Made by a program: the position numbers and the translations under genes. The notes beneath the pieces are model-generated. The model made no database searches and had not been told where the DNA came from. It worked only from the letters and a program-made list of their open reading frames with translations. This document shows, piece by piece, positions 26,118 through 63,715 of a DNA stretch of 64,000 bases (positions are counted from its first letter, which is position 1; every line of letters begins with the position of its first letter). The stretch lies in NCBI GenBank assembly GCA_052390115.1, contig JBQTHE010000035.1, forward strand, positions 13,088 to 77,087. The letters are read 5' to 3'. This stretch comes from Pseudonocardiales bacterium (lineage in GTDB: Bacteria; Actinomycetota; Actinomycetes; Mycobacteriales; Pseudonocardiaceae).

Positions 26118-26861
26118 GTGACTCCCAATACCACCGAGCCCGGCTCCGACCTCGTTGAGGCCGTCGAGCTGGCCCGGCGGGCGGCGCAGGTCGACGCCGG
26201 TGACAGTCCGGTGGGTCGGCAGGTGGGGACACAGATTGAGGACGGCGGCGCGGTCACACACCTGTTCGAGGCCGACCTGCCCGGCTACCGAGGCTGGCGC
26301 TGGGCGGTCACGGTGGCTTCGGCGGGTCCGGCCGCTCCGGTGACGATCAGCGAGGTGGTGCTGTTGCCCGGGCCGGACGCGCTGGTCGCGCCGGCCTGGG
26401 TGCCGTGGACCCAGCGGGTCCGGGCAGGTGACCTCGGGGTCGGGGACCTGCTGCCGACCGACCCGGACGATCCGCGGTTGGTGCCCGGCTATCTCAGCGA
26501 CGATGACCCGGCAGTGGAGCAGCTCAGCCCGGAGCTGGGCCTGGGACGACCCCGGGTGCTGGGGCGGGAGGCTCGCCTCGCGCTGCTGCAACGATGGCGC
26601 GACAGTGACCGCGGCCCGGATTCCGAGATGGCCCGCAGCGCCCCCGATCGATGCGTGACCTGCGGCTTCTACCTTCCGCTCGGCGGGGCGCTCGGCGCGG
26701 CCCTCGGTGTCTGCGGCAATGACATGGCTCCGGCCGACGGGCAGGTGGTGCACGCCGAGTTCGGCTGCGGGGCGCACTCCGAGGTGCAGGTGGATACCAG
26801 CCCGAGCGTGCCGGTGGCCGAGCTGGTCTACGACGACGCCGAGCTGGAGATACTGACCTGA
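26118..26861 (+). CDS. DUF3027 domain protein
   Basis: C-terminal Cys cluster CVTCGFYLPLGGALGAALGVCGNDMAPADGQVVHAEFGCGAHSE. GTG start at 26118. Confidence 0.7.
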   Translation: MTPNTTEPGSDLVEAVELARRAAQVDAGDSPVGRQVGTQIEDGGAVTHLFEADLPGYRGWRWAVTVASAGPAAPVTISEVVLLPGPDALVAPAWVPWTQRVRAGDLGVGDLLPTDPDDPRLVPGYLSDDDPAVEQLSPELGLGRPRVLGREARLALLQRWRDSDRGPDSEMARSAPDRCVTCGFYLPLGGALGAALGVCGNDMAPADGQVVHAEFGCGAHSEVQVDTSPSVPVAELVYDDAELEILT

Positions 26862-26899
26862 ACGCCGATCCGTTCGGCACCGCAGCGCTGCGCGAGGGT

Positions 26900-29710: not shown

Positions 29711-29976
29711 GTCGCACTGTGCTGCGATACTCAACCTAGGAACCATCTCTGCTACAACTTTTGAAGTGTTGCGGCAGCGCCGGCCTCATCGCTAACGTGA
29801 TACTCGGACTCGAACCATACGTCCTGCGCCGTGACTTTCCTATGCACACTGCCGTGCTTGGGCTCATGGCGACCGTGCACGGTGGCGTGATCGTCTCATT
29901 ACCAGCTGCCTGGCGGTGACCGGACTGACTGTTGGGCGGCCGAGTGAATGGTTCGTCCTGACGTAGGTAACTGGAG

Positions 29977-49174: not shown

Positions 49175-50269
49175 TCAGGCGGCAGCCACGGTGCCCTCGC
49201 GCACCGGTTTGCTCACGTCGTGCAGGAACGACGCTACCTCACGGTAGGAGGCGAGCAAGCCGACCTCGTAGTAAGGAATACCGTTCTGCTCGCAGTACGC
49301 CCGTACAATCTTCTGGCACTTGCTAAAATTCATCTGCGGCATCGTCGGAAACAGGTGGTGCTCGATCTGGTAGTTCAGGCCGCCGTAGATGAAGTCGACC
49401 AGCAGCGACGGCTTGATGTTGCGCGAGGTCAGCACCTGCCGCTCGAACCATTCCAGCGATTCCTCGCCAGTGCGCACCGGCATACCCTTGTGGTTGGGTG
49501 CGAACAGCATGCCAAAGTACACACCGAGCACCGCCTGCTGCACCAGCACGAACACGATGGCCTTCACCGGCGAAAGTACGGTGAACACGCAACCGAGCAA
49601 AATGGCAACGTGGGCAAACAGTAGCAAGGCTTCGATCCACGGGTAGCGTACGATGCGTTGGTGCAGCGCCTTGATCGCGGTGAGGTGCATTTTCATGCCT
49701 TCCAGCACAAGCAGCACGAAGAACAGCACGCTCTGGTAGCGCACCACGAACTTCTGCGTGCGGCGGCGGGACGGATACTGGGAGATGTCGAAGATCGCTG
49801 TGCGTCGGCCGATGTCTGAGTCGTTCTCCAGATGGTTGGGGAAGCTGTGGTGGCGGTTGTGGTGGTTGATCCACCAGCCATAGCTCACTCCGTTCACCAG
49901 GTTGGCGTGGAACCAGCCAACCAACGTGGCCGCGGTTTTGTTGCGGAACATGGCCTTGTGTCCGGCGTCGTGCCACAGGAACGCGCTCTGCCCCCCGCAG
50001 AAGCCCATCCACACGGCGACCGCGAGCTGCCACCAGGAGTCGCCGATCAAGAAGAACGCTACTAGTCCGGCGACCAGCAGCAGAGTGTTGAATGCGATCT
50101 TGAGGACGTAGCGCCCCAGGCGCGGGTCGAGTAACCCGGCGTCCTTGACCAGCTTGGACAGCTCGCGAAAATTTCGGCCGGTCTCGGCTACGTGCGATCG
50201 GTTGAAGTCGAGTTCTGGTGCATTGGCGACTGACACCGAACTGGCGTCGGTGGATCCACGAACTTGCAT
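49175..50269 (-). CDS. Membrane fatty-acid desaturase (three His boxes)
   Basis: RBS aaggag 8 nt before ATG 50269. HDAGH, HNRHH, QIEHHLFP. Confidence 0.85.
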   Translation of the reverse strand: MQVRGSTDASSVSVANAPELDFNRSHVAETGRNFRELSKLVKDAGLLDPRLGRYVLKIAFNTLLLVAGLVAFFLIGDSWWQLAVAVWMGFCGGQSAFLWHDAGHKAMFRNKTAATLVGWFHANLVNGVSYGWWINHHNRHHSFPNHLENDSDIGRRTAIFDISQYPSRRRTQKFVVRYQSVLFFVLLVLEGMKMHLTAIKALHQRIVRYPWIEALLLFAHVAILLGCVFTVLSPVKAIVFVLVQQAVLGVYFGMLFAPNHKGMPVRTGEESLEWFERQVLTSRNIKPSLLVDFIYGGLNYQIEHHLFPTMPQMNFSKCQKIVRAYCEQNGIPYYEVGLLASYREVASFLHDVSKPVREGTVAAA

Positions 50270-50291: not shown

Positions 50292-51755
50292 TCACTGCGG
50301 CAGGTTGTCGTGCCGGTAGTGCGGCTGATTGGCACCGGACAGCGCGCGTAGCGTCGCGGCAACCACCGCTGGGGTCTGCTGCGGCTGGATGATCTCGTCC
50401 ACGGACATCCGTTCCGCAGCGAGATGCACGGCCGTGGCCTCCGCCCGGTAACGCGAGACCAGGGCGTCCCGGGCGTCCGGATCGGCGGCAAGCTCCCGCC
50501 GGAAGATCACGTCGACAGCGCCCTCGGCGCCCATCACCGTCAGTTCCGCGCCCGGCCAGGCGAATACCGCGTCCGCGCCGAGCGACTTGGAGTTCATGAC
50601 GATGTACGCGCCGCCGAACGCCTTGCGCAGCACCACCGTCACCCGCGGCACTGTCGCTTCGGCGTAGGCGTACAACAGCTTGGCACCCTTGCGGATCACC
50701 CCGCCGTTCTCCTGGCTGGTGCCGGGCAGGAAACCGGGCGTGTCCACCAGGGTCACCAACGGCAGGCCGAAAGCGTCACACATGCGCACGAACCGGGCCG
50801 CCTTCTCCGCGGACCTGATGTCCAGCGTGCCGGCCAGCTCCTGGGGCTGGTTGGCCACCACACCGACCGGCGCGCCCTCGACTCTGGCGAAGCCGATCAC
50901 GATGTTGGGGGCGAACCGCGGCTGCAGCTCGAGGAAGCTGCCGGCGTCCACCACACCGCGAATCACGCCCCGCACGTCGTAGGACTTGCGGTGGTCGGCG
51001 GGCACCTCGGGTACCGGTTCCGGCTCGCACGGCAGCGTCATGGGCGGCCGGTCCCAGCAGGACGCCGGCAGGTAGGACAGCACCTGGCGGGCCAGTGCGA
51101 TGGCCTTGCACTCGTTCTCAGCCTCCAGGTGAACCACCCCGGAGTGCCTTGTGTGCACGTCGATCCCGCCGAGTTCCTCGCCGGTGACGTCTTCGAAGGT
51201 GACCGCCTTGACCACCCTGGGACCGGTGAGGAACATCTGCGCCCTCGGTCGCTGCATGATCACCACGTCGGTGAGGGCCGGCGAGTACACGGCGCCGCCC
51301 GCGCACGGGCCGAGGATCACCGAGATCTGCGGAATCCGGCCGGACTGCAGCACGTTGGCCCGGAAGATGCCGCCGTAGCCGTCCAGCGCGCCGACACCCT
51401 CCTGGATGCGGGCACCGCCGGAGTCCAGCAATCCCACCACAGGCATCCGGGAACGGGCCGCGCACCCCATGATCCGGATGATCTTGGCGGCATGCACCTC
51501 GCCGAGCGAGCCGCCGAGCACGGAGGAGTCCTGGGCGAACAGCGCCAGAGGGCAGCCGCCAACTCGTGCCAGTCCGGTGAGCACACCGTCGCCGGCCGGA
51601 CGGCGGTGCTGCATGTCGAACGCTGTGCTGCGGTGCCGGGCCTGGCTGCCCAGCTCGGCGAAGGAGTCGGGATCAGCCAACTGGGCCAGTCGCTGCCGCG
51701 CGGACAGCTGCACCGGCGGGTGGGCGGCCACGGCGTCCGGCGCGACGGCGGTCAT
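50292..51755 (-). CDS. Acyl-CoA carboxylase carboxyltransferase (beta) subunit, AccD/PccB-type
   Basis: The ATG shares ATGA with the KS stop. GGSLGEVHAAKIIRIM, DSGGARIQEGV, GPCAGGAVYSPALTD, FAWPGAELTVMGAEGAV. No biotin-carboxylase partner in the window. Confidence 0.85.
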   Translation of the reverse strand: MTAVAPDAVAAHPPVQLSARQRLAQLADPDSFAELGSQARHRSTAFDMQHRRPAGDGVLTGLARVGGCPLALFAQDSSVLGGSLGEVHAAKIIRIMGCAARSRMPVVGLLDSGGARIQEGVGALDGYGGIFRANVLQSGRIPQISVILGPCAGGAVYSPALTDVVIMQRPRAQMFLTGPRVVKAVTFEDVTGEELGGIDVHTRHSGVVHLEAENECKAIALARQVLSYLPASCWDRPPMTLPCEPEPVPEVPADHRKSYDVRGVIRGVVDAGSFLELQPRFAPNIVIGFARVEGAPVGVVANQPQELAGTLDIRSAEKAARFVRMCDAFGLPLVTLVDTPGFLPGTSQENGGVIRKGAKLLYAYAEATVPRVTVVLRKAFGGAYIVMNSKSLGADAVFAWPGAELTVMGAEGAVDVIFRRELAADPDARDALVSRYRAEATAVHLAAERMSVDEIIQPQQTPAVVAATLRALSGANQPHYRHDNLPQ

Positions 51756-52969
51756 GGTGCGGTCACCACCAACACCGCGTTCTGCCCACCGAAGCCGAAC
51801 GAGTTGCTCACCGCGACCTCGATGCGTCGGCGGACCGGATGATCCGCCACCTGGATGCTGATGCGGGGGTCCAGGTGATTCAGGTTGGCAGTTGGTGGAA
51901 CCAGCTGGCATTCGAGCGCGAGCACCGAGAACGCCGCCTCCGCGGCGCCCGCCGCGCCGAACATGTGGCCGGTCACTCCCTTGGTCGAGGTGACCACGGG
52001 TCGGTCGCCGAGCACCCGGTCGATCACTTGAGCCTCGATGATGTCGTTGAGCGGGGTCGACGTGCCGTGCGCATTCACGTGATCGACCTGGTCGGGTCCG
52101 ATCCGAGCGTCGGCCAGCGCCGTTCGCAGTGCCTGTTCGCACCCCCGACCGGCCGGATCCGGCGCGGTGACGTGGTGTGCATCGGCGCTTGCGCCGAAGC
52201 CGGCCACCATCCCGCGCACCCGGGCACCCCTGGCCCGCGCGTCTGCTGGTCGTTCCAGCACTAGCACCGCACCACCCTCGCCGGCCACAAAGCCGTCCCG
52301 CGCCTCGTCGAACGGCCGGGACGCCGACGACGGATCACCGACCCGGCCCGACAGCGCGCCCATCTGGGCGAATCCGGCCATCACCAGCGGGGTGATCATC
52401 GCCTCGCTGCCGCCGGCGAGCACGACGTCACACCGGTCCAGCGTGAGCAGGTCACGCGCCAACCCGATGGCGGTGGCGCCCGAGGCGCACGCGGTGGCCA
52501 CCACCAGGCTCGGGCCGGTGAGGCCGAGGTCGATGGACACCTGGCCGGCCGACATATTCGGCAGCTGCATGGGCAGCAGCAACGGCGACACCCTGGTCGG
52601 CGCCTCATCGAGCAGCACGCGGTGCTGCTGCTCCACCGTGCCGGGGCCGCCGTCGGCGCACCCCAGCACCACTGCGATCCGGGCGCTGTCCCAGGCCACC
52701 GGGTCGAGACCGGCGTCGGCCACCGCCTCTCGCGCGGCCACCACGGCGAACTGTACGAACCGGTCCATCCTTCTGGCCACCCGGCCACCGAGCAGCTCGG
52801 TTGGCTCGACCGAGACCCGGGAACTGAAGTTCACCGGCAGGCCGGCCAGCGTCGGGTCGGGTCGCGCGGTCGGTATGCCGGTGCTGACGCCGGCCCAGGA
52901 CGCCGCGACGTCGGCTCCGGCCGGCGTGTACATGCCGAGGCCGGTGACCGCGACAGGACACCCCGCCAT
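51752..52969 (-). CDS. Beta-ketoacyl-ACP synthase II (FabF-like elongating KS)
   Basis: ATACASGATAIG (Cys), NAHGTSTPLND, TGHMFGAAG. 1-nt overlap (TGATG) with the ACP gene. Confidence 0.9.
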   Translation of the reverse strand: MAGCPVAVTGLGMYTPAGADVAASWAGVSTGIPTARPDPTLAGLPVNFSSRVSVEPTELLGGRVARRMDRFVQFAVVAAREAVADAGLDPVAWDSARIAVVLGCADGGPGTVEQQHRVLLDEAPTRVSPLLLPMQLPNMSAGQVSIDLGLTGPSLVVATACASGATAIGLARDLLTLDRCDVVLAGGSEAMITPLVMAGFAQMGALSGRVGDPSSASRPFDEARDGFVAGEGGAVLVLERPADARARGARVRGMVAGFGASADAHHVTAPDPAGRGCEQALRTALADARIGPDQVDHVNAHGTSTPLNDIIEAQVIDRVLGDRPVVTSTKGVTGHMFGAAGAAEAAFSVLALECQLVPPTANLNHLDPRISIQVADHPVRRRIEVAVSNSFGFGGQNAVLVVTAP

Positions 52970-53202
52970 CAGACCGTCGCACTCCGGCTTGTGACCAGGT
53001 CCACGACCGACTCCAGCCGACCGGCTTGCGCTAGGTCGTCGTCGGTCACCCGGACGCCGATCTCCTTCTCGATGACCAGGGCGAGCTCGACCAGGTCCAG
53101 CGAGTCGAGGCCGAGGTCCCTCAGCGTGGCCTCCGGCTCGATGTCCTCGGTCGGCACCTGGAACTTGCGCTCCATGATTTGCTTGAGGTGCTCGTACATC
53201 AA
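52969..53202 (-). CDS. Acyl carrier protein
   Basis: LRDLGLDSLDLVELAL. ATGA overlap with KASIII. Confidence 0.85.
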   Translation of the reverse strand: MMYEHLKQIMERKFQVPTEDIEPEATLRDLGLDSLDLVELALVIEKEIGVRVTDDDLAQAGRLESVVDLVTSRSATV

Positions 53203-54323
53203 TTTCTCCTAGGTGGTGGCGACGGGGAATCGGTCGGCTCCGCCTCGTCGCATGAGCTGGCCAGCTGGTCGCCGGTCGCGGCGAACGCAGTGATGTCGGG
53301 CCAGCGCAGGGTGGCCGCGCCCCAGGTGAGGCCACCGCCGAAGCCGGCGACCAGAACTCGGTGACCGGCTCGCAGCTCGCCGGCCACCGCGGCCTGGGCC
53401 AGCAGCAGTGGGATGGACGCCGCGGCGGTGTTGCCGACCCGGTCGATGTTGCTGACCTGCCGGTCCCTGGTGATACCCAGCCCTGACGCGACCGAGGCGC
53501 AGATCCGAATGTTGGCCTGGTGCGGGACGAACCTGTCGACGTCTTCGACACGCCAGCCGGCTCGGCGCAGCGCGCGCAGCGAACAGTCGGTGATCCGCTC
53601 GACCGCATTCCGGTAGACTTCGCCGCCGCGCATCTGGAAGTAGCGGTCGGCCTCGGCCATCTGCTCGCCGGAGGAACGCTGCCGCGCTCCCCCGGACGGG
53701 ATGCAGATCAGCTCGCTACCGCCACCGTCGCTGCCCAGCACGCACGGCCCGACCACGCCCGGCTCGCCGGCCGTGCCGGCCCGCAGCACCACCGCTCCGG
53801 CGCCGTCGGCGAAGATCACCGCGGTGTTCCGGTCGTTCGGGTTGATGATCGTGGAAAACGCCTCGGCACCAATCAGCAGCACCCGGTCGGCGGTGCCGCT
53901 GGCGATCACACCGACCGCGCTGGCCAGCCCGTAGAGGAATCCGCTGCACACCGCGGACACGTCCCAGGCCGCCACCCCGGTCAGCCCGAGCCGGGCGGCC
54001 ACCGCGGGCGCGGTCGCCGGGCACAGGCAGTCGGGCGTGGTGGTGGCCAGCACCACCGCGTCCACGTCGACTCCACCGGCGGACTTAAGCGCCAGCGCGC
54101 CGGCCTCTGTGGCCAGGTCGCCGGTGGCCATGCCCCGGTCGACCACGTGCCGGGCCCGGATGCCGGTCCGGCTGGTGATCCACTCGTCCGAGGTGTTCAG
54201 GTGGGTGGCCAGGTCGTCGTTGGTCACCACCCGAGGTGGGAGCCAGGCGCCCGCACCGCAGATCACCGCGTGCCGGTCCGCGGCGGGACCCCGACGGGCG
54301 GTTGACGTTGCCACGGTGGTCAT
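53199..54323 (-). CDS. Beta-ketoacyl-ACP synthase III (FabH-like) with ~30-aa C-terminal extension
   Basis: AVCSGFLYG (Cys), VPHQANIRI (His), VGNTAAASIP (Asn). ATGA overlap with the di-iron gene. Confidence 0.85.
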   Translation of the reverse strand: MTTVATSTARRGPAADRHAVICGAGAWLPPRVVTNDDLATHLNTSDEWITSRTGIRARHVVDRGMATGDLATEAGALALKSAGGVDVDAVVLATTTPDCLCPATAPAVAARLGLTGVAAWDVSAVCSGFLYGLASAVGVIASGTADRVLLIGAEAFSTIINPNDRNTAVIFADGAGAVVLRAGTAGEPGVVGPCVLGSDGGGSELICIPSGGARQRSSGEQMAEADRYFQMRGGEVYRNAVERITDCSLRALRRAGWRVEDVDRFVPHQANIRICASVASGLGITRDRQVSNIDRVGNTAAASIPLLLAQAAVAGELRAGHRVLVAGFGGGLTWGAATLRWPDITAFAATGDQLASSCDEAEPTDSPSPPPRRN

Positions 54324-55300
54324 GGAGCGGACCGTGCACTCGAGAGCACGCCGTCCAGACCCATATAGGTCATCCGGACCTCGGCCATCTGGTCTGTCCA
54401 CCGCTGAGCCATGTCGTAGCGCTCCTCGGGCGTGGTATCCAGCATCCGCTGGCCCGGCCAGATCTCGTAGTCGCCGATCAGTCCCGCATGCTGTGCCATG
54501 CCCTGCTGGAATAGTTCCTCGCGGGTCATCACGTACTTGCGGTCCGGCACCGCGTCCCACAGCCGCTCACCCTCGGCGAGTATCTCCAGCAGCCGGGGCC
54601 GGTACTCTGGGTGCGCGCTCAGGTGGTCTCGGATGATCGAGCTGCCGACGGTGAGGTGGCGGATCTCGTCGATGGCCGCGCCGCGAGCGATCTCGCTGGC
54701 CGCCGGGTCGAGACGATCCCATTTGCGTTCGCTGAGCTCGGCCGCCGGCGCGAGCACACCCTCGATCACGATGGTGAAGATGGCGACTCCGCCGACGAAG
54801 TCGCCCTCGTCGCGCATCACTCGCAGGGCGAACTCCTCCACTGGGTCGAGCACCTCCGCGGTGTAGTCCGCGGACATCTCGGCGATGGTGGGCAGCAGCT
54901 TGTTCGCCGGCACACCTATGTCGACCAGATGGTTGCGGAACACCATGGCGTGCCGGGCCTCGTCGACCAGCTGCGTGGTGTAGAACTCGATCTCCGGAAT
55001 ACCCGGCGCTGAAGCGACGTAGTGGGCCAGAATGCGGGTCGCCTTCTCCTCGGCTACCGAGCGGTATCCAAGCTCAAGCAACAGAGCTTCGCGCAGCGGG
55101 CCCGGTTCGCGCATGTGGTCTGGGGTGATCACGCCGACCGCATACCCTTTCGCCGCCCTGCCGCGCAGGGTGCCCTGGGCGACCGAGCTGAGCCAGTACG
55201 CAAGATCGCACTGCTTCGCGGTCAGGACGAGGTTCATCGCGCCGTCCAGCAGCCCGGGAGCGGTGTCCCAGCCTGCCTCGCGCGGGATGGCGTCGGTCAT
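54320..55300 (-). CDS. Ferritin-like di-iron carboxylate oxygenase (candidate N-oxygenase / azoxy-forming enzyme)
   Basis: Two E...ExxH units: EIEFYTTQLVDEARHAMVF and IEGVLAP...AIDEIRHLTVG. RBS gaggaagg. ATGA overlap with the flavin reductase stop. Confidence 0.7.
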   Translation of the reverse strand: MTDAIPREAGWDTAPGLLDGAMNLVLTAKQCDLAYWLSSVAQGTLRGRAAKGYAVGVITPDHMREPGPLREALLLELGYRSVAEEKATRILAHYVASAPGIPEIEFYTTQLVDEARHAMVFRNHLVDIGVPANKLLPTIAEMSADYTAEVLDPVEEFALRVMRDEGDFVGGVAIFTIVIEGVLAPAAELSERKWDRLDPAASEIARGAAIDEIRHLTVGSSIIRDHLSAHPEYRPRLLEILAEGERLWDAVPDRKYVMTREELFQQGMAQHAGLIGDYEIWPGQRMLDTTPEERYDMAQRWTDQMAEVRMTYMGLDGVLSSARSAP

Positions 55301-55887
55301 CGCGTAAGCCTTCCTCTCGGTGTCAGCTGGATTCCGAGGTGCGGACCGAGGCAGCCGAGGTGGTTGGTCGGGCGGAAATCGTCGGAAAGGGCGCACAGCG
55401 ACCCGCCGTGCAGGGTGCTGGCGAAACTGAGCAGTGGGGAACCGACGCCGGTTTCGCCCGACGCCACGACGGCGAGCAGGAGGCAGTGGTCGCCGGCCGG
55501 CAGCCAGCGGCTGAGCCGGCACGTCAGGTAGGACAGCGAGCCGTTGATCAACGGGGCATCGCTGGTCGAGTCGGTCCGGCAGCGGATGCCGTCGAACTGC
55601 GCGCTGCCGCGGGGCCGGTCGGGGTGGGCAAACCATCGGGCCAGGGCAGCCTGCTCGGTGTTCAGCACGTTCACCGAGAACCATTGCCGGTCGCGAACGC
55701 GCCGGAGAAACGACGAGCTTCGGGCCAGGCTCACTCCGATGAGCAACGGTTCCCTGGACACCGCGGCCAGCGCGCTGACCGTCGTGCCGTGTGCGCCGCG
55801 CTCGTCGGCGAGGGTGAGCACCGAAACCCCGGAGGTGAACCGGCGGACCGCTCTATGGTGGTTTTTGGTCACTACCTCGGTGATCAT
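55297..55887 (-). CDS. NAD(P)H:flavin reductase (HpaC/VlmR-type)
   Basis: RAVRRFTSGVSVLTLADERGAHGTTVSALAAVSREPLLIGVSL...FSVNVL. Confidence 0.8.
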   Translation of the reverse strand: MITEVVTKNHHRAVRRFTSGVSVLTLADERGAHGTTVSALAAVSREPLLIGVSLARSSSFLRRVRDRQWFSVNVLNTEQAALARWFAHPDRPRGSAQFDGIRCRTDSTSDAPLINGSLSYLTCRLSRWLPAGDHCLLLAVVASGETGVGSPLLSFASTLHGGSLCALSDDFRPTNHLGCLGPHLGIQLTPRGRLTR

Positions 55888-55901
55888 CAGTGGTCTCCGG
55901 T

Positions 55902-56414
55902 TCAGCCGGCCGCGGTCTGCCGGGCGGTACGGGAGGCCTCCGGTGTGTCCTGGGCGGTCGGCTCGACGTCGCTGCGGGATTCCAAGGCGGCACGCAGCTT
56001 CAGGTACGCCGGGTGCGGCTGGGGTTCGAAGGACAGGTTGAACGGCTTGAGGAAGTTGCCGAACAGTCCCCGGTCACCGAACAGGTGGATGGGGATGGCC
56101 AGTAGGGCCCACTCCCACCCGACGAACAGCACCCACAGCGCTATCACCGCGCTCTGGGTGATCAGGCTGTGCATGGTGTTGTAGAGCACGTAGTAGATCT
56201 TGGGGATCCGTTTGGTGCTGCTGCGGTGCCAGGCGATGGCGCCAGGGAGGTAACCGATGAGATCGATGTAGACGAACAGGACCACCGCCGGCAGCCAGCG
56301 GACCTGGTCGATGTGCACGACGAACAGGGCGACTGCGACGGCGAACAACACCAGGTACTCGGCGCGGTGCAGGCGGTAGGTCGTGCGACTCTCAAAGGGA
56401 TTGGCCTGGTCCAT
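55902..56414 (-). CDS. Small integral membrane protein (DUF4260-like, ~4 TM); candidate VlmO-type N-N-forming component
   Basis: RLHRAEYLVLFAVAVALFVVH, LPAVVLFVYIDLIGYLPGAI, YYVLYNTMHSLITQSAVIALWVLF, ALLAIPIHLFGDRG. Assignment to a VlmO-like role is by context only. Confidence 0.55.
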   Translation of the reverse strand: MDQANPFESRTTYRLHRAEYLVLFAVAVALFVVHIDQVRWLPAVVLFVYIDLIGYLPGAIAWHRSSTKRIPKIYYVLYNTMHSLITQSAVIALWVLFVGWEWALLAIPIHLFGDRGLFGNFLKPFNLSFEPQPHPAYLKLRAALESRSDVEPTAQDTPEASRTARQTAAG

Positions 56415-56420
56415 GATCAG

Positions 56421-56921
56421 TCACCTCTCAGCGGGCGCGCCGGCGACCGGGGCCGGCACGAGTTCCAGTTCGCCGTCCAGGTGCACGTCGTCGAACATGC
56501 CGACCACGACCCAGGCGACGGTCTCCTTGATGACGCGTTCGGCGATCGGGTCGAGAATGCCCTCCAAACTCGGGATGCCGAAGTCGAAGTCGACCTCGAA
56601 GTGCAACTCGGTGTCCTCGCCGGAGTGGCGCAGTGTCCAATGTCCGGTGAACTCGTCGAAATCCCCGTTCTGCTGTTCGAACTTGATCACCAGATCGTCC
56701 CGCAGGAACTGCTCCTGTTCGGTCCAACGCAGTAGTCCGCTGCGGAAGCGCAGCACCCAACTCGACCGGCCGGTCGGCGCGGGCCGTGTCTGGTGCACGA
56801 CCGCGGACTGCACGTGCGGGGCCAGTTCCGGGTACCGTTCGAACTTGACCACCGAGTCATAGACCGTCTCCGGGGACACGCCCCTGATCAGCGCGTTCAG
56901 CTGGACATGCCGCATGGTCAT
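56421..56921 (-). CDS. SRPBCC (START/cyclase-dehydrase fold) protein
   Basis: VSPETVYDSVVKFERYPELAPHV...WVLRFRSGLLRWTEQEQF...FEQQNGDFDEFTGHWTL. ATGA overlap with the aminotransferase stop. Confidence 0.7.
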   Translation of the reverse strand: MTMRHVQLNALIRGVSPETVYDSVVKFERYPELAPHVQSAVVHQTRPAPTGRSSWVLRFRSGLLRWTEQEQFLRDDLVIKFEQQNGDFDEFTGHWTLRHSGEDTELHFEVDFDFGIPSLEGILDPIAERVIKETVAWVVVGMFDDVHLDGELELVPAPVAGAPAER

Positions 56922-58204
56922 TTACCGCCTTCCGGCATGCGAGCACGCCGGGAGATCAGATCTCTGGTCGCGCGGTCGAATGATCGGATCAGGAACTCCA
57001 CGTCGGAGTCGGTGAGAATGGCCGGTGGGGTGAATCGGACCGTCGCGATGCCGTTCATCGAATGGTTGGCTATCACGCCGTGGTTGAACAGCTCGATCAA
57101 CATCTCGCCGGCAAGGCCGGCCTCGACGAATTCGACACCGATCAGCAGGCCTTTGCCGCGGACGTCGACCACCAGGTCGCCGCAGTTCTCGCGCGCGATG
57201 CGCTCGATCTCCGGCAGCAGTAGGGCGCCGAGTTCGGCGGCCTTGGTGATCAATCGGTCCTCCTTGATAGCCTGGATCGCGCCCCGCACGGCGGCCATCA
57301 GCACCGGCGCCCCGGAGAAGGTGGCGGTGTGCACGTACGGGTCCTTGTCGAACGGCGAGAAGATCTGCCGGTTGGCCACCGCGGCGGACACCGGCAGCAC
57401 GCCGCCGCCCAGTGCCTTGCCGGTCAGCAGCACGTCCGGCACCACACCTTCGAGGTCGACACCCCACCATTCGCCGAGTCGGCCCATGCCGCTCTGCACC
57501 TCGTCGATGATCAGGAAACCGTCGTGCTTACGGCACAAGTCCGCGACGCTGGTCAGGTAGCCGGGCGGCGGGATGATCACGCCACCCTCGCCCTGCACCG
57601 GTTCGACGATCACGCCGACCTCACCTGGATGCGCCGCCAGTTCGCGTTCCAGCGCCTCGTTGTGGCCGAACGGCACGTGCGTCACGTCGGGCAGCAGCGG
57701 CTGGAACGGCTTCTGGTAGACGTCCTTGGCTGTCACGGACAGAGCACCGAGCGTCTTTCCGTGATAGCCGTGGTGCATCGAGACCAGCCGCCGCTTGCCG
57801 TGCGCCCTGGCCAGCTTCAGGCCGGTCTCCACAGCTTCGGCGCCGGAGAGCGCGAAGTGCACCCGGTCCATGCCGGGTGGGGTGACCGAGGCCAGCGCCT
57901 CGGCCGCCCTGGCCACCGTCGGTTCGAGCAGGATCCTGGTGGAGATCGGGTGGGCGTGCAGTTGGCTGAGCACGGCGTCCATCACGATCGGATGCCGTGC
58001 GCCCATGATGAACACGCCGTACCCGCCGCAGTTGAGGAACTCCCCGGCATCGCTAGTGCGCAGCCACGCGCCGGCGGAGGCGACCTCCATGTGGCTGCCG
58101 AAAAGTTCGGCGAGCGTGGCCCGCCCCTTGCTCAGATGCGCCCGGTACAGGTCGAGGATCTCCGCCCCGGAGTCGACCGGCGCGGCTGTGTCGATCACGG
58201 TCAC
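56918..58204 (-). CDS. Class III PLP-dependent (omega-)aminotransferase
   Basis: GGYGVFIMGARHP, HGYHGKTLGALS, IIDEVQSGMGRLG, LLTGKALGGG (PLP Lys). Confidence 0.85.
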   Translation of the reverse strand: MTVIDTAAPVDSGAEILDLYRAHLSKGRATLAELFGSHMEVASAGAWLRTSDAGEFLNCGGYGVFIMGARHPIVMDAVLSQLHAHPISTRILLEPTVARAAEALASVTPPGMDRVHFALSGAEAVETGLKLARAHGKRRLVSMHHGYHGKTLGALSVTAKDVYQKPFQPLLPDVTHVPFGHNEALERELAAHPGEVGVIVEPVQGEGGVIIPPPGYLTSVADLCRKHDGFLIIDEVQSGMGRLGEWWGVDLEGVVPDVLLTGKALGGGVLPVSAAVANRQIFSPFDKDPYVHTATFSGAPVLMAAVRGAIQAIKEDRLITKAAELGALLLPEIERIARENCGDLVVDVRGKGLLIGVEFVEAGLAGEMLIELFNHGVIANHSMNGIATVRFTPPAILTDSDVEFLIRSFDRATRDLISRRARMPEGGK

Positions 58205-58249: not shown

Positions 58250-59386
58250 TCAGGAAAGTCGCAGTGGCCCGCCGGCGAAGTAATCCAGAAGCGGTTCGGC
58301 CGCGCTGCTCCGCGACGGCGGGTGGAAGGCCAATGCACGCACCGCGCAGGACAGGTAGGCGATATCGGAGGACCGGATGAAGGCGATGCCGCCGAGCAGC
58401 TCCACGGCCAGATCGGTGGTGGCCGCCAAGGCTGCCTGCACGGCGTAGCGGGCCACCAGCACGGCGGCGACCGCGTCGTCGCCGGACAGCCCGTCGTCGA
58501 CGGCGCGGGCCACTCCCTCCAACTGGCCGACGGCGGACTCGAGGCCCACCGCGACCGCGGCCCGGTCGGTCACGCTTCCCCTGCCACCATCCAGCACTTG
58601 GGCGGCAAGCGCGCTGGCCGCGCCGACGTAGACCGACGAGATCAGCATGACGAACCACACGAAGCCCGCGGTCTGCAGGTCGTCCAGGCGGTGCGGATCG
58701 TCGGGCCTGGTACGGATGACCAACTCGTCGGGCACTCGGACGTCGGTCAGCCGGACCTCGTCGCTCTGCGCGGCGGCCAGCACCCAGCTGGACCAGAAGG
58801 GATGCACCGAGATCCCCGGCGAGTGCGCCGGAACTAGCGCGACCGCCAGGGAATCCGTACCTTCCGTGGACAGCGCGACGCTCGCGGTCAGCAAGTCCAT
58901 CGACCCGGACAGGCTGCAGGGCTTCTTGCTGCCACTGAGCATCCAGTTGTCGCCGTCGGGTCGGGCGGACACGCTGGGCAGCAGGATGTTCTGGTTCGGC
59001 TTGCCCTCCGCCCAGCCCGAGGCCATCAGCAGGCCGTCCGGTACCACCCTGGACAGCAGGTCGATCTGCAGGCCGGTGAGCCGGTCGGCGGTGCGGGCAA
59101 GGGAGAACAGCATCGCCGCGGTGAAGTGGTGCATGGTGACGGCGGCACCGAGCGACGGCGAGCACGAGGACAGGCCGCGCATCACGCGGATCGCTTCCAA
59201 CGCGCCGGCGCCCGCTCCGGAGTACTCCGGCGGCACCAGCAGACCGACGCCGCCGAACTTGCGAAACAGCCCGATCACCGGGCTGCCGACGGCCTCGCGT
59301 TCCAGCAACGGAATCTCGTCGAGGGCCGCGCACAGCCCGGGGTGGTGCTTCTCGCAGACCTGCCGTGCCGCGTCCAGCGAGCGCAT
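58250..59386 (-). CDS. Acyl-CoA-dehydrogenase-fold flavoprotein; candidate two-component amine N-hydroxylase (VlmH-like)
   Basis: RBS aaggag before ATG 59386. ACAD-like architecture (FGGVGLLVPPEYSGAGAG..., WMLSGSKKPCSLS, C-terminal helical bundle). A flavin reductase is encoded in the same operon. Confidence 0.65.
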   Translation of the reverse strand: MRSLDAARQVCEKHHPGLCAALDEIPLLEREAVGSPVIGLFRKFGGVGLLVPPEYSGAGAGALEAIRVMRGLSSCSPSLGAAVTMHHFTAAMLFSLARTADRLTGLQIDLLSRVVPDGLLMASGWAEGKPNQNILLPSVSARPDGDNWMLSGSKKPCSLSGSMDLLTASVALSTEGTDSLAVALVPAHSPGISVHPFWSSWVLAAAQSDEVRLTDVRVPDELVIRTRPDDPHRLDDLQTAGFVWFVMLISSVYVGAASALAAQVLDGGRGSVTDRAAVAVGLESAVGQLEGVARAVDDGLSGDDAVAAVLVARYAVQAALAATTDLAVELLGGIAFIRSSDIAYLSCAVRALAFHPPSRSSAAEPLLDYFAGGPLRLS

Positions 59387-59457
59387 GTGGATCTCCTTGG
59401 GTCGGGGCGGGAAAGGTCGGGGTAGGGCAACGTCGTGGTCCGGCGATGGCCGCACCT

Positions 59458-61113
59458 TCAGCAGCCGAACATGGCGTCACGCGGGCGTATACCGGTGGCG
59501 ATGCTGACCCCCTGCAGATGGGAGGTCTTGAGGATCGGGTAGTTGGCCTCGCCGAACACACCGCCGGTCAATCCCGTGCCACCGTGGGTGGGCAGGATCG
59601 GCAGGAAGCCGATGTGCGAGTCATTGATCTTGAGCAGGCCGGCGTTGCGGACGTCGCGCACGAAGCGGTCGATGACCTCGGTCGAGGCCGACCACAGCGA
59701 GTTGCGCAGCCCGTACTCGTTGGCGTTGACGAACCCGATGACCAGATCGAGCAACACCTCGTCGGGTGCGTGTTCGGGCACCACCACCGGCAGCATCGGG
59801 TAGAAAGTCTCGTGCCTGACCACCGCCAGTTCCCGCGCGCCGGACATCCCGTCGACCCGCAGCACGGTCGGTTCCAGGAACACCCCGGTCTCCGACGGCG
59901 TGCCGTCCAGCTCCACCCGCCGGCCGCCGGTGATTACCCGCGCGCCCTGCTCGAGCGCCTGGCGCAATTGGGCGAAGAACTTCTCGCTGCGGCGGACCGG
60001 GGACAGCAGCACGTCCTCGTCGTCGGGATAACCGGGCCGGATCCGGGCGGCCTGCTCCCGGAGCCTGGCTAGCAGCTCGTCAGCGATGTCGGGGTGGGCC
60101 ACCACGTACTTGGGCACCATGCAGATCTGGCCGGACCCGAAGAAGCACTCGGTGATGGCTTCGGCCGCCATGTCCAGGTCGCCGTCGTGCCACACGACGA
60201 GGCCGTCGTTGCCGGCGAGTTCAAGGATCGGCTTCTTGCCCCTGGCCACGCACTCGGTTTGCAGCCGCAGACCCTCTTCGCTGCCGCCGATGTAGAAGAT
60301 GTCGTTGACGAGCGGGTGTTGCAGCCATCGATCGAGGATCTGGCGCGGCGGCCCGCAGACAACGTTCAGCGTGCCGGCAGGCGCGTCCAGATCCTCCAGC
60401 AGCGGCACCACCAGATCCCGGAGCACGTACATGCTGCTCAGCGCGATGCTGCGGGGCGCCCGCACCACCACGGCGTTGCCAGCCATCAGCGCCAGCACGG
60501 CCAGCGCTGCGCTGGGCGCCGGCGCGTTCTGCGGCGGATTCAAGCACACCACACCGTCGGGCTGGTACCGCACGATCAGCCGACGCGAGCCGTACGCGAA
60601 CTCGGTGTACATCTGCTGCGCGTACCAGGAGCAGCTCTCCTGGCTGAACACCTGCATCAGACAGGTGAACTCCCATTCGGCCAGCTTGCGGGGGTGCGCC
60701 TCGGCCACGAGCATGCCCAGGAACTCCTCACGGTGGCGCACGAGCTTGTGCCGGAACAGTTCGCCGAGGCGCAGCCGCTCGGCCAGCGGTACGCCAGCCC
60801 ACACCGGTGCGGCGGCCGCCGCGGCCTCGATGGAGGCGTCCACCTGCTCCGCGCTGGCTACCGCGCAGCGGCCGACCACGTAGGGGTGGCCGCCGGCGTC
60901 GGAGTGCGGGTCCTGCTCGAGTGCCCGCTTGAGGCGCACGCTAGTGAACACGTCCTCCAGCAGGGAGCGGGCGGTCACCGTGTACACCCAGGCGATTCCC
61001 TCCACGTCCCTGCCGGCGATATAGGAATGGTAACTTCGCAATCCGACAGTATTAATCGCCTCGGCGTCCTCCAGATCCACACTGAGGATTTGGACGTTAT
61101 AGTCGGCAACCAC
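59458..61113 (-). CDS. Aldehyde dehydrogenase-superfamily enzyme (possible acyl-thioester reductase / aldehyde-forming)
   Basis: ILELAGNDGLVV (catalytic Glu region) and FFGSGQICMVPKYVV (catalytic Cys). 551 aa with N- and C-terminal extensions. Confidence 0.75.
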   Translation of the reverse strand: MVADYNVQILSVDLEDAEAINTVGLRSYHSYIAGRDVEGIAWVYTVTARSLLEDVFTSVRLKRALEQDPHSDAGGHPYVVGRCAVASAEQVDASIEAAAAAAPVWAGVPLAERLRLGELFRHKLVRHREEFLGMLVAEAHPRKLAEWEFTCLMQVFSQESCSWYAQQMYTEFAYGSRRLIVRYQPDGVVCLNPPQNAPAPSAALAVLALMAGNAVVVRAPRSIALSSMYVLRDLVVPLLEDLDAPAGTLNVVCGPPRQILDRWLQHPLVNDIFYIGGSEEGLRLQTECVARGKKPILELAGNDGLVVWHDGDLDMAAEAITECFFGSGQICMVPKYVVAHPDIADELLARLREQAARIRPGYPDDEDVLLSPVRRSEKFFAQLRQALEQGARVITGGRRVELDGTPSETGVFLEPTVLRVDGMSGARELAVVRHETFYPMLPVVVPEHAPDEVLLDLVIGFVNANEYGLRNSLWSASTEVIDRFVRDVRNAGLLKINDSHIGFLPILPTHGGTGLTGGVFGEANYPILKTSHLQGVSIATGIRPRDAMFGC

Positions 61114-61226: not shown

Positions 61227-62732
61227 TCAGCCGGCGAGCGCCAGGGTTAGTAGTCGGGACAGCTCTTCGGCCGAACAGGTGGAAAGCGAAGCGAATGTGT
61301 CCGCCACCTCGACCGGCCCACCGTGAGTGAGGAACTTGGTGCGCATCAGTTCGGCGTGCGCGGCGCGGGTGTGGGGGCCGGCGGCACCGATCGGGATGTC
61401 CCGCTGCCTGGTGAACGACCGGCCGTCTGCGAGGTGCACGGTGACTCGGGCCGGGGTGCTCTTGGTCGCGGTCTGGTAGGTCTCAGCAGCCGGGCCGATC
61501 TCGCCGGCCAGCGTCGCTAACTCGGCGCCGCCGAACTTCGCCAGCCAGCAGACAGCGCGTTTCCCGGCCTGGCGGACCGCCTCGCCGAAGGGCGCGACGG
61601 ACTCGAGTAGGCACCTGGTCATCTCCGGGTCGTGCACCAACTGGACCGCTTCGGCCAGCGCCCACCTGCGTGGATCGCTGATCGCGGGCTCAGCGAAGTC
61701 GGCGACGGTCAGGTCACCGGTCAGCAGCGTGGTGGCCACCGCATAGGGGGTGGCCAGCAGCAGCGAGCTGATGGGGGTATCCGCACCGTTGAGGTAGTCT
61801 TCGGCCTTCCGGCCGACGAAGAGGGTATACAGCGAAACGTCGACCACGATCCGTGTCACGTGACGTTGCGGGGATGCGTTGACCGCGACGAGATCGCGGT
61901 GCAGTTCGATGGCGCAGTCCACCGCCGCATCGATACCCGGCCCACCCGGACGGACCTTGAACGACAGCGTGTCGGTATGCCACCGGTGCCCCAGCCCGTC
62001 GGTCACCGCCTCGGGCAACGGCACCGAGGCGAACCGAGCGAGGAAACCGTCCGGATGCTCAAGGATGTCCGGCAAGCCCACCATCTCGGCCGCTGCCGCA
62101 TCGCACGCGTCCATGGCCGTACGCACCGGCGTGAACGCGTGCAACGCCTTGGCATCGCTGCCAAGGAAGCCGTGCATCGACGGCCACATCGGCGTGGTGA
62201 ACGACAGGCCAAGCGCGTCCACCCACCGCCGGGCTGGCGCAGACTCGCTGCGCAGACGGCCGGCCACAGCGCCGGCCAGGTGCGTGTGCAGGGCGCTCTG
62301 TCCTCGGAACGGTCCGAGCGTAGCCGCCGCGGTGATACGGGCGGCGCACTCGTTCGCGGCGATCACCGCGGTGAGCAGCGCGGGGCCGTCCATCCCCAGA
62401 GCGTAGGTGTAGGCAGTCGGGACGGACACGGTCGAACCGCCGAGGTGGCCGGCGTAGGCGGTGTCGTCCAGGTTCAGCCAGGAACCCAGGCCGGCCAGCA
62501 CGCACGCCGACTGGCGTGGATCGGCCTGCAGCGGGGGCCCGAAGGCCCGGACCAGCTTGCGGCCCAACGGATGGATCAGCCCAGCCCGGATGGCGGCGAG
62601 TTGCGAGAGCACCTGACTGCCGGCCAGCGCGACCACTCTCGGCGGTACGTCCGCCAACCGTAGGGTGCTGGCCCACTCGGAGAGTTCCCCTGTCAGCGTC
62701 GCGTGCGCGGTCCGGGTTCCCATGGTGGTCAT
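61227..62732 (-). CDS. MmgE/PrpD-family protein (VlmK-like candidate lyase/dehydratase)
   Basis: The ATG shares ATGA with the kinase stop. LSEWASTLRLADVPPRVVALAGSQVLSQLAAIRAG is a typical PrpD-family N-terminus; 501 aa. Confidence 0.75.
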   Translation of the reverse strand: MTTMGTRTAHATLTGELSEWASTLRLADVPPRVVALAGSQVLSQLAAIRAGLIHPLGRKLVRAFGPPLQADPRQSACVLAGLGSWLNLDDTAYAGHLGGSTVSVPTAYTYALGMDGPALLTAVIAANECAARITAAATLGPFRGQSALHTHLAGAVAGRLRSESAPARRWVDALGLSFTTPMWPSMHGFLGSDAKALHAFTPVRTAMDACDAAAAEMVGLPDILEHPDGFLARFASVPLPEAVTDGLGHRWHTDTLSFKVRPGGPGIDAAVDCAIELHRDLVAVNASPQRHVTRIVVDVSLYTLFVGRKAEDYLNGADTPISSLLLATPYAVATTLLTGDLTVADFAEPAISDPRRWALAEAVQLVHDPEMTRCLLESVAPFGEAVRQAGKRAVCWLAKFGGAELATLAGEIGPAAETYQTATKSTPARVTVHLADGRSFTRQRDIPIGAAGPHTRAAHAELMRTKFLTHGGPVEVADTFASLSTCSAEELSRLLTLALAG

Positions 62733-63715
62733 CGACGAGAACCGTCCAGGGTGGCCATGCCGCTTCGGCACAGTGCGGGAAGGACCCTCGGCAGCACCTG
62801 CAGGGTGAACCGGGTCGCCGTGCCCGTGCGCAGCTCACCGTCGTGCTCGAAGCTCAGCGGCTCGCCGTCGGTCCGTTCGACGGTGACGCGCCGGCCCCGC
62901 GCATACACCACACCCGGCTCGCGCAGGTGTGCACCATTGCGTGTCAGATCGGGTACGTCCACGGGATCGATCTCGCTACCGATCACGCACACATCCAGCA
63001 AACCGTCGTCGAGCACCGAACGGGGCAACACCTGGTAGCTACCGCCACGATGGCGGCCCCCGCCTACGTTGGCCAGCACGGTCTTGCCTGCGTGAACCAC
63101 GGCACCGTCGACGAGGACGCGACCGGGATACGGCACGTACTCAGCCGCGGTCCTGGCCAGCGCGATCCGGTAACGTTCCCGGCCCACGATCGGGACGGAC
63201 CTGACTGTGATCAGAGCGTCGGCGATCAGGCCCGAGCACGCACCGAGCAAGACCAGGGCGTCGAGTTCGACCAGCCGGGCGATGTCGAGCAGGCAACGCC
63301 GGGAACCGTTGCCGCTCAACGCGGCGGGCACCGCCTCCGGCCACGGCAAGTCGCCCCACTGCGCGAGGTAGCTGGAGTTGCCGGTACCGGCCGGGATGAT
63401 CAGCAACGCAGGAAACACGTCCCCGGTGCCCGCCGACAGCAGACCTTGTACCACCTCGCGGACCGTGCCGTCGCCGCCAACCGCGATCACCACGTCGGGT
63501 CGGCGGCTGACCGCCTCGGTGGCCGCCTCGGTGGCCGCCTCGGTGGCCGCCAGGGTGGCGTCACCGCGCTCGGTAGTCCAGCGGACCGACAGCCGGTGGA
63601 CGTGCGGCCGACACAGCTCGACCAGTTCTGCGACTAGATCTGGGCTCACTGTGCCCGCAGCCGGATTCGCTATGACCAGAGCGGCGGAGAACGGCCGACC
63701 GTTCACGTCAACCAT
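62729..63715 (-). CDS. Diacylglycerol-kinase catalytic-domain (LCB5/YegS-type) kinase (VlmJ-like candidate)
   Basis: ALVIANPAAG ... VVIAVGGDGTVREVVQGL (GGDGT motif). RBS gggag upstream of ATG 63715. Confidence 0.8.
   Translation of the reverse strand: MVDVNGRPFSAALVIANPAAGTVSPDLVAELVELCRPHVHRLSVRWTTERGDATLAATEAATEAATEAVSRRPDVVIAVGGDGTVREVVQGLLSAGTGDVFPALLIIPAGTGNSSYLAQWGDLPWPEAVPAALSGNGSRRCLLDIARLVELDALVLLGACSGLIADALITVRSVPIVGRERYRIALARTAAEYVPYPGRVLVDGAVVHAGKTVLANVGGGRHRGGSYQVLPRSVLDDGLLDVCVIGSEIDPVDVPDLTRNGAHLREPGVVYARGRRVTVERTDGEPLSFEHDGELRTGTATRFTLQVLPRVLPALCRSGMATLDGSRR

Follow-up and report, generated by a model that had tools for sequence, protein, structure and literature searches.

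A probable aliphatic azoxy operon in a Pseudonocardiales bacterium, with an Ady5-type SRPBCC protein belonging to its fatty-amine supply arm

In the 64,000-nucleotide stretch of a Pseudonocardiales metagenome-assembled genome (MAG) analyzed here (contig JBQTHE010000035.1; the whole stretch is hereafter called the window), four consecutive minus-strand genes at positions 54320-56921 very probably constitute, judging by homology, the center of an aliphatic azoxy operon of the KA57-A/elaiomycin type. These genes encode a predicted VlmB-like di-iron oxygenase (54320..55300; 326 amino acids (aa)), a VlmR-like NAD(P)H:flavin reductase (55297..55887; 196 aa), a VlmO-like four-helix membrane protein that is a putative metalloenzyme (55902..56414; 170 aa), and an SRPBCC/START-fold protein of the Ady5 type (56421..56921; 166 aa). 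A first-pass annotation, produced from the nucleotide sequence without database searches, had combined all four in a candidate N-N bond- and azoxy-forming core; our analysis bears out this role for the di-iron and membrane proteins, whereas the flavin reductase and the SRPBCC protein are better placed in other parts of the same pathway.

The four open reading frames (ORFs), found on the minus strand at the stated coordinates, are real genes rather than chance ORFs because they show a strong third-position guanine-plus-cytosine (GC) bias (0.75-0.90, against the background of high-GC actinomycete DNA, 0.61-0.74 in the window), and each of the encoded proteins has hundreds of homologs with 60-99% identity in homology searches (the best 120 matches, all at least 60% identical, were tabulated). 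As described previously for the di-iron gene, its start overlaps the stop of the reductase gene and its stop overlaps the start of the downstream gene for 3-ketoacyl-ACP synthase III (KASIII), in both cases in an ATGA that can be read directly in the sequence; another ATGA overlap joins the stop of an upstream aminotransferase gene to the start of the SRPBCC gene. Homologs of the SRPBCC protein mostly begin at the second ATG (alternative start at 56915), two codons inside the start used here.

The assignment of the di-iron protein to the VlmB family is supported by similarity along practically its full length: the best match in the PDB is a "Putative VlmB homolog" (6d9f/8wvr; E=3.3e-138, residues 2-319), and homologs with 67-99% identity are named "VlmB-like protein" at NCBI, in agreement with the original assignment. 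The sequence contains a ferritin-like carboxylate/histidine set of six putative ligands (E, ExxH, E, ExxH), with the two di-iron motifs reported earlier, DEARH and DEIRH, located at residues 113-117 and 211-215, respectively. None of these residues (E84, E114, H117, E180, E212 and H215) varies among 20 diverse family members that were aligned, and an R2-like oxidase has its EA-H, EGV and DE-RH motifs at the places that correspond to E114/H117, E180 and E212/H215, respectively. In the literature, VlmB has been confirmed in vitro as the oxidase that converts the hydrazine to the azoxy group (PMC11705231), and knockout of azdB in an azodyrecin producer leads to accumulation of hydrazine and azo intermediates; the same conversion is predicted for the protein encoded in the window.

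It is extremely improbable that this protein is instead an arylamine N-oxygenase of the AurF/CmlI/AzoC type, an R2-like ligand-binding oxidase or a ribonucleotide reductase (RNR)-like protein, with a nitroso or nitro group or a radical cofactor as the product. There are, indeed, weak matches to Pfam AurF (24 bits, residues 90-158) and NCBIfam R2lox (37 bits), but both fall below the curated cut-offs (29.6 and 194 bits, respectively), and R2lox and the small subunits of RNR, which are only distantly matched in the PDB (E=0.017-0.4), fall behind the VlmB homolog by approximately 136 orders of magnitude in E-value. Furthermore, the gene is located between those for VlmR and VlmO on one side and fatty-acid synthase genes on the other, and the ORFs scanned in the window gave no indication of a pathway for aromatic amines. 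The AurF/R2lox identity was rejected on these sub-cut-off scores against the E-value of 3.3e-138. Clustering with desaturases or RNR-like proteins, which the first-pass annotation had named as an outcome that would count against its assignment, was not observed: the match to the VlmB homolog dominates, the next PDB hits, to R2-like oxidases and RNR small subunits, have E-values of at least 0.017, and AurF and R2lox remain below threshold. The other outcome named there, a lack of homology of either protein to enzymes of the VlmB/VlmO type, likewise turned out in favor of the assignment.

Relatives of VlmB are encoded in the genomes of at least 366 species, as found in a scan of one genome per species; the 80 best of the 366 VlmB-encoding loci, none of which comes from a named producer, were fetched and searched with the window proteins using tblastn. 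VlmO was matched in 79 of these loci, VlmH in 75 and VlmR in 71; the SRPBCC protein and the aminotransferase were each matched in 69 loci, KASIII was matched in 67, and the aldehyde dehydrogenase (ALDH)-family protein in 60. The gene block ALDH-VlmH-aminotransferase-SRPBCC-VlmO-VlmR-VlmB-KASIII-ACP-KASII (where ACP is the acyl carrier protein and KASII is a KASI/II-type ketosynthase) recurs in 69 of the 80 loci, and its order is essentially fixed, across Streptomyces, Kitasatospora, Micromonospora, Salinispora, Parafrankia, Microbispora, Jatrophihabitans and Pseudonocardiaceae. The closest locus among the 80 (L001) comes from a Pseudonocardiaceae MAG and encodes a VlmB that is 83% identical to the one in the window, within the same operon layout.

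A different arrangement is found in a set of minimal loci that consist of genes for VlmA, VlmH, VlmO, VlmR and VlmB in a valanimycin-like order (L026, L036, L037, L038, L040, L044, L047, L048 and L051, with L042 and L070 partly similar). These come mainly from Actinomadura, Streptosporangiaceae, Actinosynnema and Dactylosporangium, and the source of the amine is not obvious from the matched genes. Except for one weak match to KASII, none of the 11 minimal loci showed a match to the aminotransferase, the SRPBCC protein, KASIII or the other fatty-acid synthase genes of the cluster.

For the membrane protein, the first-pass annotation had proposed a relationship to VlmO, the enzyme for which hydrazine formation has been confirmed in vitro and in which D51, H82, H110 and D114 are reported to be essential (2024 review, PMC11705231). 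At each of these four positions, the protein encoded at 55902-56414 carries the same residue as VlmO (D, H, H and D); the motifs highlighted previously, YNTMHS and IHLFGDRG, correspond to residues 78-83 and 109-116. The residue numbering can be carried over because the family alignment is free of gaps over its first 130 residues, and none of the four residues varies in any of 80 sequences (the window protein and its 79 homologs from the genome loci). A profile search of 1.84 billion representative proteins (50%-identity clusters) detected only 152 relatives; among the 120 best of these, the expected residue is present in 100 of 101, 97 of 98, 85 of 88 and 83 of 83 representatives covering positions 51, 82, 110 and 114, respectively, and the exceptions include truncated proteins. 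Conservation of D51/H82/H110/D114 across the whole of this small family thus provides a practical family signature.

No Pfam or NCBIfam family could be assigned to the membrane protein; a match to DUF4260 is below the cut-off (E=0.08), and the same weak similarity has been reported for Ady6. The sequence profile search of the PDB was empty, and Foldseek detected nothing better than E=5, in agreement with the statement in the review that there is no crystal structure of VlmO (PMC11705231). The AlphaFold model (mean predicted local distance difference test score, pLDDT, of 74) contains long helices at residues 10-33, 40-64, 72-97 and 100-118 and a C-terminal amphipathic helix. Therefore, the four transmembrane segments proposed originally have their counterpart at the level of the model; the hydropathy profile, on the other hand, shows three clear hydrophobic stretches, and for the homologous AzdO, InterPro is reported to predict three helices. 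The loop at residues 62-73 carries a charge of +4 which, combined with the hydropathy profile, fits an N-in/C-in topology. Taken together, the four essential residues at identical positions, the DUF4260 likeness and the position of the gene next to that of VlmB in 79 of the 80 loci support the identification of this small polytopic protein (the family spans about 150-180 aa), encoded together with VlmB, VlmR, VlmH and VlmA, as a VlmO-like membrane protein and a predicted N-N-forming hydrazine synthase. In the azodyrecin producer, knockout of azdO yields no intermediates.

Some members of the VlmO family are natural fusions, about 470-490 aa long, of an N-terminal VlmO domain with a C-terminal LPG_synthase_C (VlmA-like) domain. 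At least four of these appear complete (P0371, P0374, P0393 and P0385), and the shorter or partial P0380, P0384 and P0408 look alike; the architecture resembles that of MprF. This layout would bring the tRNA-dependent transferase to the cytoplasmic face, adjacent to the site of VlmO. The fusions link VlmO with the enzyme that produces its substrate and support direct hand-over of the unstable O-aminoacyl-hydroxylamine. In two other proteins, the VlmO domain has different partners: P0382 is an amino-acid permease with a C-terminal VlmO domain (residues 451-568), and P0377 combines an N-terminal VlmO domain with an AEP-TOTE primase-like domain, which may be a chimera of assembly or gene calling.

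The flavin reductase (Pfam Flavin_Reduct, E=1e-25) was previously counted among the components of the N-N/azoxy core, but its homology to VlmR puts it together with the VlmH-type N-hydroxylase and outside the N-N/azoxy step. Its nearest matches in the PDB and NCBIfam are the reductase components of two-component monooxygenases (HpaC/StyB-type). The predicted partner, and presumptive amine N-hydroxylase, is a VlmH-like flavin monooxygenase with the acyl-CoA dehydrogenase fold (58250..59455, minus strand; ~401 aa, with the Acyl-CoA_dh N-terminal and middle domains), the equivalent of Ady3/AzdH, whose nearest relatives in the PDB are flavin monooxygenases of the DszC type. The combination of a Flavin_Reduct reductase and an acyl-CoA-dehydrogenase-fold monooxygenase in one operon is, thus, found here, with both proteins recognized by family rather than by alignment to VlmH and VlmR. 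Knockout of azdH or azdR results in accumulation of un-hydroxylated amide shunt products. In 71 of the 80 loci, the VlmO and VlmB genes are separated by the reductase gene; in the other nine (L002, L018, L023, L031, L049, L053, L054, L070 and L072), VlmB directly follows VlmO. Hence, the reductase is not an obligatory neighbor and is presumably supplied from elsewhere in these cases.

Several observations weigh against assigning this locus to the azoxy pathway. The PDB entry matched by the di-iron protein is itself labeled only a "putative" VlmB homolog. The link of the membrane protein to VlmO comes from the reported residue numbers, synteny and family-wide conservation rather than from an alignment to VlmO (Q84F35/E4N6B1), KaO, ElaO or Ady6, and its structural model is of only moderate confidence (pLDDT 74). 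The gene for the VlmA-like aminoacyl-tRNA-dependent transferase (29971..30993, plus strand; Pfam LPG_synthase_C, E=7e-53; a stop-free frame with the true start a few codons inside) is located approximately 24 kb from those for VlmO and VlmB, at the far edge of the cluster, beyond an arm of polyketide synthase (PKS) genes. Finally, no seryl- or other aminoacyl-tRNA synthetase equivalent to VlmL was found between positions 30000 and 64000 of the window, despite the presence of homologs of VlmJ and VlmK, and without a seryl-tRNA synthetase, the identity of the amino-acid partner is a guess. In the case of azodyrecin, the aminoacyl-tRNA has been proposed to come from the cellular pool and, by analogy, this would apply here as well. 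The VlmA-like, VlmH-like, VlmJ-like and VlmK-like genes are all present within the window, and the VlmA-like protein is 77% identical to that encoded in the closest locus, L001. In L001 and many other loci, the VlmA gene is located immediately and divergently upstream of the VlmJ or ALDH gene; the window ends 285 bases past the VlmJ start, and a second VlmA copy beyond position 64000 is possible. The cluster itself runs from about 29.9 kb to beyond 64 kb, past the right end of the window.

The fourth protein is a member of the SRPBCC superfamily (Pfam Polyketide_cyc, PF03364, E=8e-22), and its AlphaFold model (pLDDT 84) has the canonical helix-grip START fold recognized in the first-pass annotation. 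The closest structure is TTHA0849 (2d4r; Foldseek E=4.5e-11, TM-score 0.70-0.79; profile search E=6e-12); farther matches include the aromatase/cyclases ZhuI, TcmN and StfQ, YPO0625 and the PYR/PYL receptors, and the profile search also detected PDB entry 1t17, presumably a Coq10-like protein. The family is uniformly acidic (median isoelectric point, pI, of 4.6), and 34 positions are invariant across 70 sequences, many of these polar or charged (H36, R60, E68, Q83, D87, D124 and R129). A protein from a Pseudonocardiales MAG is 100% identical to the one encoded in the window, which points to the lineage of the source.

It had been suggested that the SRPBCC protein has no nameable counterpart. 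However, both azodyrecin clusters encode one, Ady5, an "SRPBCC family protein" of 157 or 160 aa with the proposed function "Unknown", adjacent to Ady4; the correspondence is one of fold, size and gene position. In the 80 loci, a START/helix-grip protein of about 160 aa stands beside the class III aminotransferase of the azoxy cluster in 69 of 69 cases; neither of the two genes occurs alone, and the SRPBCC gene is directly upstream of VlmO in all 69. In the rearranged azodyrecin cluster of strain A1C6, Ady5 has the aminotransferase and the flavin reductase as neighbors, and the VlmO homolog is seven genes away. Because of this strict co-occurrence with the aminotransferase, the absence from the 11 minimal loci, and the position in A1C6, the SRPBCC protein belongs to the fatty-amine supply arm and not, as originally proposed, to the N-N/azoxy core.

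With regard to the function of the SRPBCC protein within this arm, we tentatively favor, as the simplest interpretation, a carrier that would hold a water-insoluble, reactive fatty aldehyde, amine or hydroxylamine and pass it from the soluble to the membrane enzymes. The START fold, the matches to ligand-binding folds, and the co-occurrence with the aminotransferase make such a role plausible, and there is a precedent, CoxG, an SRPBCC protein that takes menaquinone out of the membrane and delivers it to a soluble enzyme. It is possible, although by no means secure, that Ady5-type proteins in general are obligatory substrate-shuttling START proteins that connect the reductase, the aminotransferase and VlmH with VlmA and VlmO, are specific to azoxy pathways with lipid tails, and have been mislabeled as RatA. 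If so, the VlmO-VlmA fusions would mark the membrane end of the same channeling line. Two features argue against the carrier function: the family is acidic, in contrast to the lysine-rich membrane-docking face of CoxG, and many of its invariant polar residues would fit an enzyme or a protein-docking surface just as well.

The latter consideration bears on the proposal that the SRPBCC protein functions enzymatically in the fatty-amine arm, for example in the release, dehydration or isomerization, whether catalyzed or chaperoned, of the aldehyde or imine intermediate on which the ALDH-family protein and the aminotransferase act. The strict co-occurrence with the aminotransferase, the adjacency to it that persists in the rearranged A1C6 cluster, the large number of invariant positions, and the existence of START-fold enzymes, such as ZhuI and TcmN, are all compatible with catalysis. 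Nevertheless, we could not map a catalytic motif, no activity is known for TTHA0849, the closest structure, and the pathway chemistry as currently proposed does not require a further enzyme; we regard an enzymatic role as rather unlikely. Still less probable, in our assessment, is an accessory subunit of VlmO, or of VlmO together with VlmA, for substrates that are long-alkyl hydroxylamines, acting in substrate delivery or product removal. This possibility is suggested by the location of the SRPBCC gene, which immediately precedes VlmO at a distance of 1-165 bases in all 69 loci, by its absence from the minimal loci that (save for the single weak KASII match) lack the aminotransferase and fatty-acid synthase genes, and by the acidic surface that could dock on the basic cytoplasmic loop 62-73 of VlmO. 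However, the seven-gene distance between Ady5 and the VlmO homolog in A1C6, where Ady5 instead adjoins the aminotransferase, is difficult to reconcile with a VlmO subunit, and VlmO is reported to be active in vitro, in a valanimycin pathway without a reported SRPBCC partner (PMC11705231).

The least probable explanation, to the point of being negligible, is that the SRPBCC protein is a ribosome-associated toxin of the RatA type or an aromatase/cyclase of a type II PKS, unrelated to the azoxy pathway: homologs are named "type II toxin-antitoxin system RatA family toxin", "ribosome-associated toxin RatA" or "aromatase/cyclase" in the NCBI and JGI databases, PF03364 covers RatA, Coq10 and cyclases, and ZhuI, TcmN and StfQ are among the fold matches, but no NCBIfam model, RatA included, matches the protein at E<=0.001, the gene is translationally coupled inside a biosynthetic operon and is always located between the aminotransferase and VlmO genes in 69 of the 80 VlmB loci, and there is no association with type II (KS-alpha/KS-beta) PKS, given that a type I module (KS-AT-DH-KR-ACP) was the sole PKS detected in the window, 33 of the 69 SRPBCC loci lack a PKS match within 10 kb, and Ady5 but no PKS appears in the ady gene tables. 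On the grounds of the missing NCBIfam match, the operon context and the lack of a type II PKS link, this identity was rejected. The fixed place in azoxy operons, combined with the absence of an NCBIfam match, indicates that the toxin and aromatase/cyclase labels of this family represent systematic mis-annotation.

From homology and the literature, we infer a pathway of seven steps. In the first step, KASIII, ACP and KASII encoded in the cluster would make a medium-chain acyl thioester, which the ALDH-family protein and the aminotransferase would then convert, via the aldehyde, to a fatty amine, with the SRPBCC protein handling the intermediate. The VlmH-like monooxygenase, using reduced flavin from the VlmR-like reductase, would N-hydroxylate the amine, and the VlmA-like transferase would move an amino acid from aminoacyl-tRNA to the hydroxylamine oxygen; because VlmJ and VlmK homologs are present, this amino acid is probably serine. 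In the fifth step, the VlmO-like protein, a putative four-helix bundle with a metal site formed by D51/H82/H110/D114, is predicted to rearrange the unstable O-aminoacyl-hydroxylamine to a hydrazine, creating the N-N bond. The VlmB-like di-iron enzyme would then carry out the four-electron oxidation of the hydrazine, through the azo compound, to the azoxy group, and the desaturase, VlmJ/VlmK and fatty-acyl-AMP-ligase/PKS genes might tailor both arms. The phenotypes of the azdH/azdR, azdO and azdB knockouts in the azodyrecin producer fit the N-hydroxylation, N-N formation and azoxy oxidation steps, respectively.

The genes that flank the four central ones are consistent with this scheme and, unless indicated otherwise, are encoded on the same, minus strand. 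Upstream of the SRPBCC gene are those for the class III aminotransferase (56918..58204; 428 aa; Pfam Aminotran_3, E=3.5e-83), the equivalent of Ady4/AzdQ, predicted to convert a fatty aldehyde to the fatty amine, and, past the VlmH-like monooxygenase, the ALDH-family protein (59458..61113; 551 aa; Pfam Aldedh, E=3e-61), the equivalent of Ady2, predicted to handle the aldehyde that feeds the aminotransferase. These are followed by a VlmK-like MmgE/PrpD-family protein (61227..62771, start uncertain; Pfam MmgE_PrpD N- and C-terminal domains) and a VlmJ-like kinase of the diacylglycerol kinase family (62729..63715; Pfam DAGK_cat and YegS_C, PF19279). On the other side of the VlmB-like gene are those for KASIII (FabH-like; 53199..54323; 374 aa; NCBIfam beta-ketoacyl-ACP synthase 3, E=1e-112), an ACP (52969..53199; 76 aa, with the LGLDSL motif read from the sequence), KASII (51752..52969; ~405 aa; Pfam ketoacyl-synt and Ketoacyl-synt_C), an acyl-CoA carboxylase carboxyltransferase subunit (50292..51755; ~487 aa; Pfam Carboxyl_trans, E=6e-160; start placed by hand from the ORF translation) and a membrane fatty-acid desaturase (49175..50269; ~364 aa; Pfam FA_desaturase, E=4e-42; start at 50269 placed by hand), the equivalent of Ady9/AzdT. 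One-base overlaps connect KASIII with ACP and ACP with KASII, and an ATGA is shared by the KASII stop and the carboxyltransferase start, so that overlaps of 1-4 bases chain the genes for VlmR, VlmB, KASIII, ACP, KASII and the carboxyltransferase. The ACP gene had been missed in the original ORF list, being below its 80-aa limit, and was not mentioned in the first-pass annotation.

Also located upstream in the window are the genes for the type I PKS module, a fatty-acyl-AMP-ligase-like enzyme, a luciferase-like monooxygenase, two thioesterases, a MaoC dehydratase and a SARP regulator. A 996-codon stop-free frame on the plus strand (26723-29710) is situated in the region of highest GC content in the window (0.73-0.74), shows no Pfam match and is overlapped by long ORFs on the opposite strand. 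At the beginning of the window (1-3125, plus strand), a sensor histidine kinase with a NIT domain is followed by a Roadblock/LC7 protein; these genes, which we take to be the start of a conservon-type signaling operon, are unrelated to the azoxy cluster.

Overall, the gene set described here is a further example of a known and well-populated pathway, with azoxy clusters reported in 22% of 1535 Streptomyces genomes and detection rules prepared for a future antiSMASH release. The N-N and azoxy enzymology has already been published, and our core finding brings nothing new on the mechanism; rather, it provides an example from Pseudonocardiales of a pathway that has been investigated for the most part in Streptomyces and Kitasatospora. 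The product is probably an alkenyl-azoxy compound with a serine-derived arm that is possibly extended by the PKS. In gene content, the window resembles the KA57-A cluster (azx) of Streptomyces rochei 7434AN4, which is listed as "azoxyalkene and type I PKS" and likewise combines azoxy genes with a type I PKS. In that cluster, the VlmO and VlmB homologs (SRO_1835 and SRO_1837) are one gene apart, like VlmO-VlmR-VlmB in the window, and the VlmA homolog (SRO_1850) is many genes away, as it is here. KA57-A-like clusters have been described as built from a short-chain fatty acid and an amino acid, and KASIII-like and VlmJ/VlmK-like genes are frequent next to particular groups of VlmA. Compared with the KA57-A/elaiomycin-type systems (KaO/KaB, ElaO/ElaB), the host is a Pseudonocardiales MAG and not a Streptomyces, the likeness is by gene content rather than by sequence and, relative to KA57-A, the window adds homologs of VlmJ and VlmK, a carboxyltransferase and a desaturase in the same operon.

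All seven valanimycin proteins VlmH, VlmR, VlmA, VlmO, VlmB, VlmJ and VlmK (Streptomyces viridifaciens, Kitasatospora setae) have homologs in the window, and the order vlmH-O-R-B, reportedly described by Garg and Parry, would match the order H...O-R-B observed here. The amine arms differ in that valanimycin is made from valine-derived isobutylamine, whereas the window carries its own fatty-acid synthase, ALDH-family protein, aminotransferase and SRPBCC protein for a lipid amine; furthermore, the valanimycin cluster encodes the seryl-tRNA synthetase VlmL, whereas no cluster-encoded one was found in the window.

The closest parallel for the amine arm is found in the azodyrecin clusters (ady of Streptomyces sp. 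RM72 and A1C6; azd of S. mirabilis P8-A2), in which knockouts of azdB, azdH, azdO and azdA support the assigned roles. The RM72 order ady2-ady3-ady4-ady5-ady6 (ALDH, VlmH-like, aminotransferase, SRPBCC, VlmO-like) is the same as that from position 61113 down to 55902 in the window, and a desaturase and a flavin reductase are also shared. Azodyrecins, however, are made from long iso-fatty amines derived from primary metabolism and from alanine, with the methyltransferase Ady1, and the fatty acid synthase is reportedly outside the azd biosynthetic gene cluster; unlike the window, the ady gene tables list no KASIII, ACP, KASII, PKS or VlmJ/VlmK. With the SRPBCC proteins of the CoxG, Coq10 and TTHA0849 types, the window protein has the helix-grip START fold in common, but its identity to these is about 25% or less, there is no membrane anchor, and its surface is acidic rather than lysine-rich. 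The conserved SRPBCC protein accompanies the aminotransferase and is missing from the minimal loci, which offers a concrete hypothesis, open to testing, for a gene that has the entry "unknown" in the azodyrecin clusters and a mistaken toxin label in genomes.

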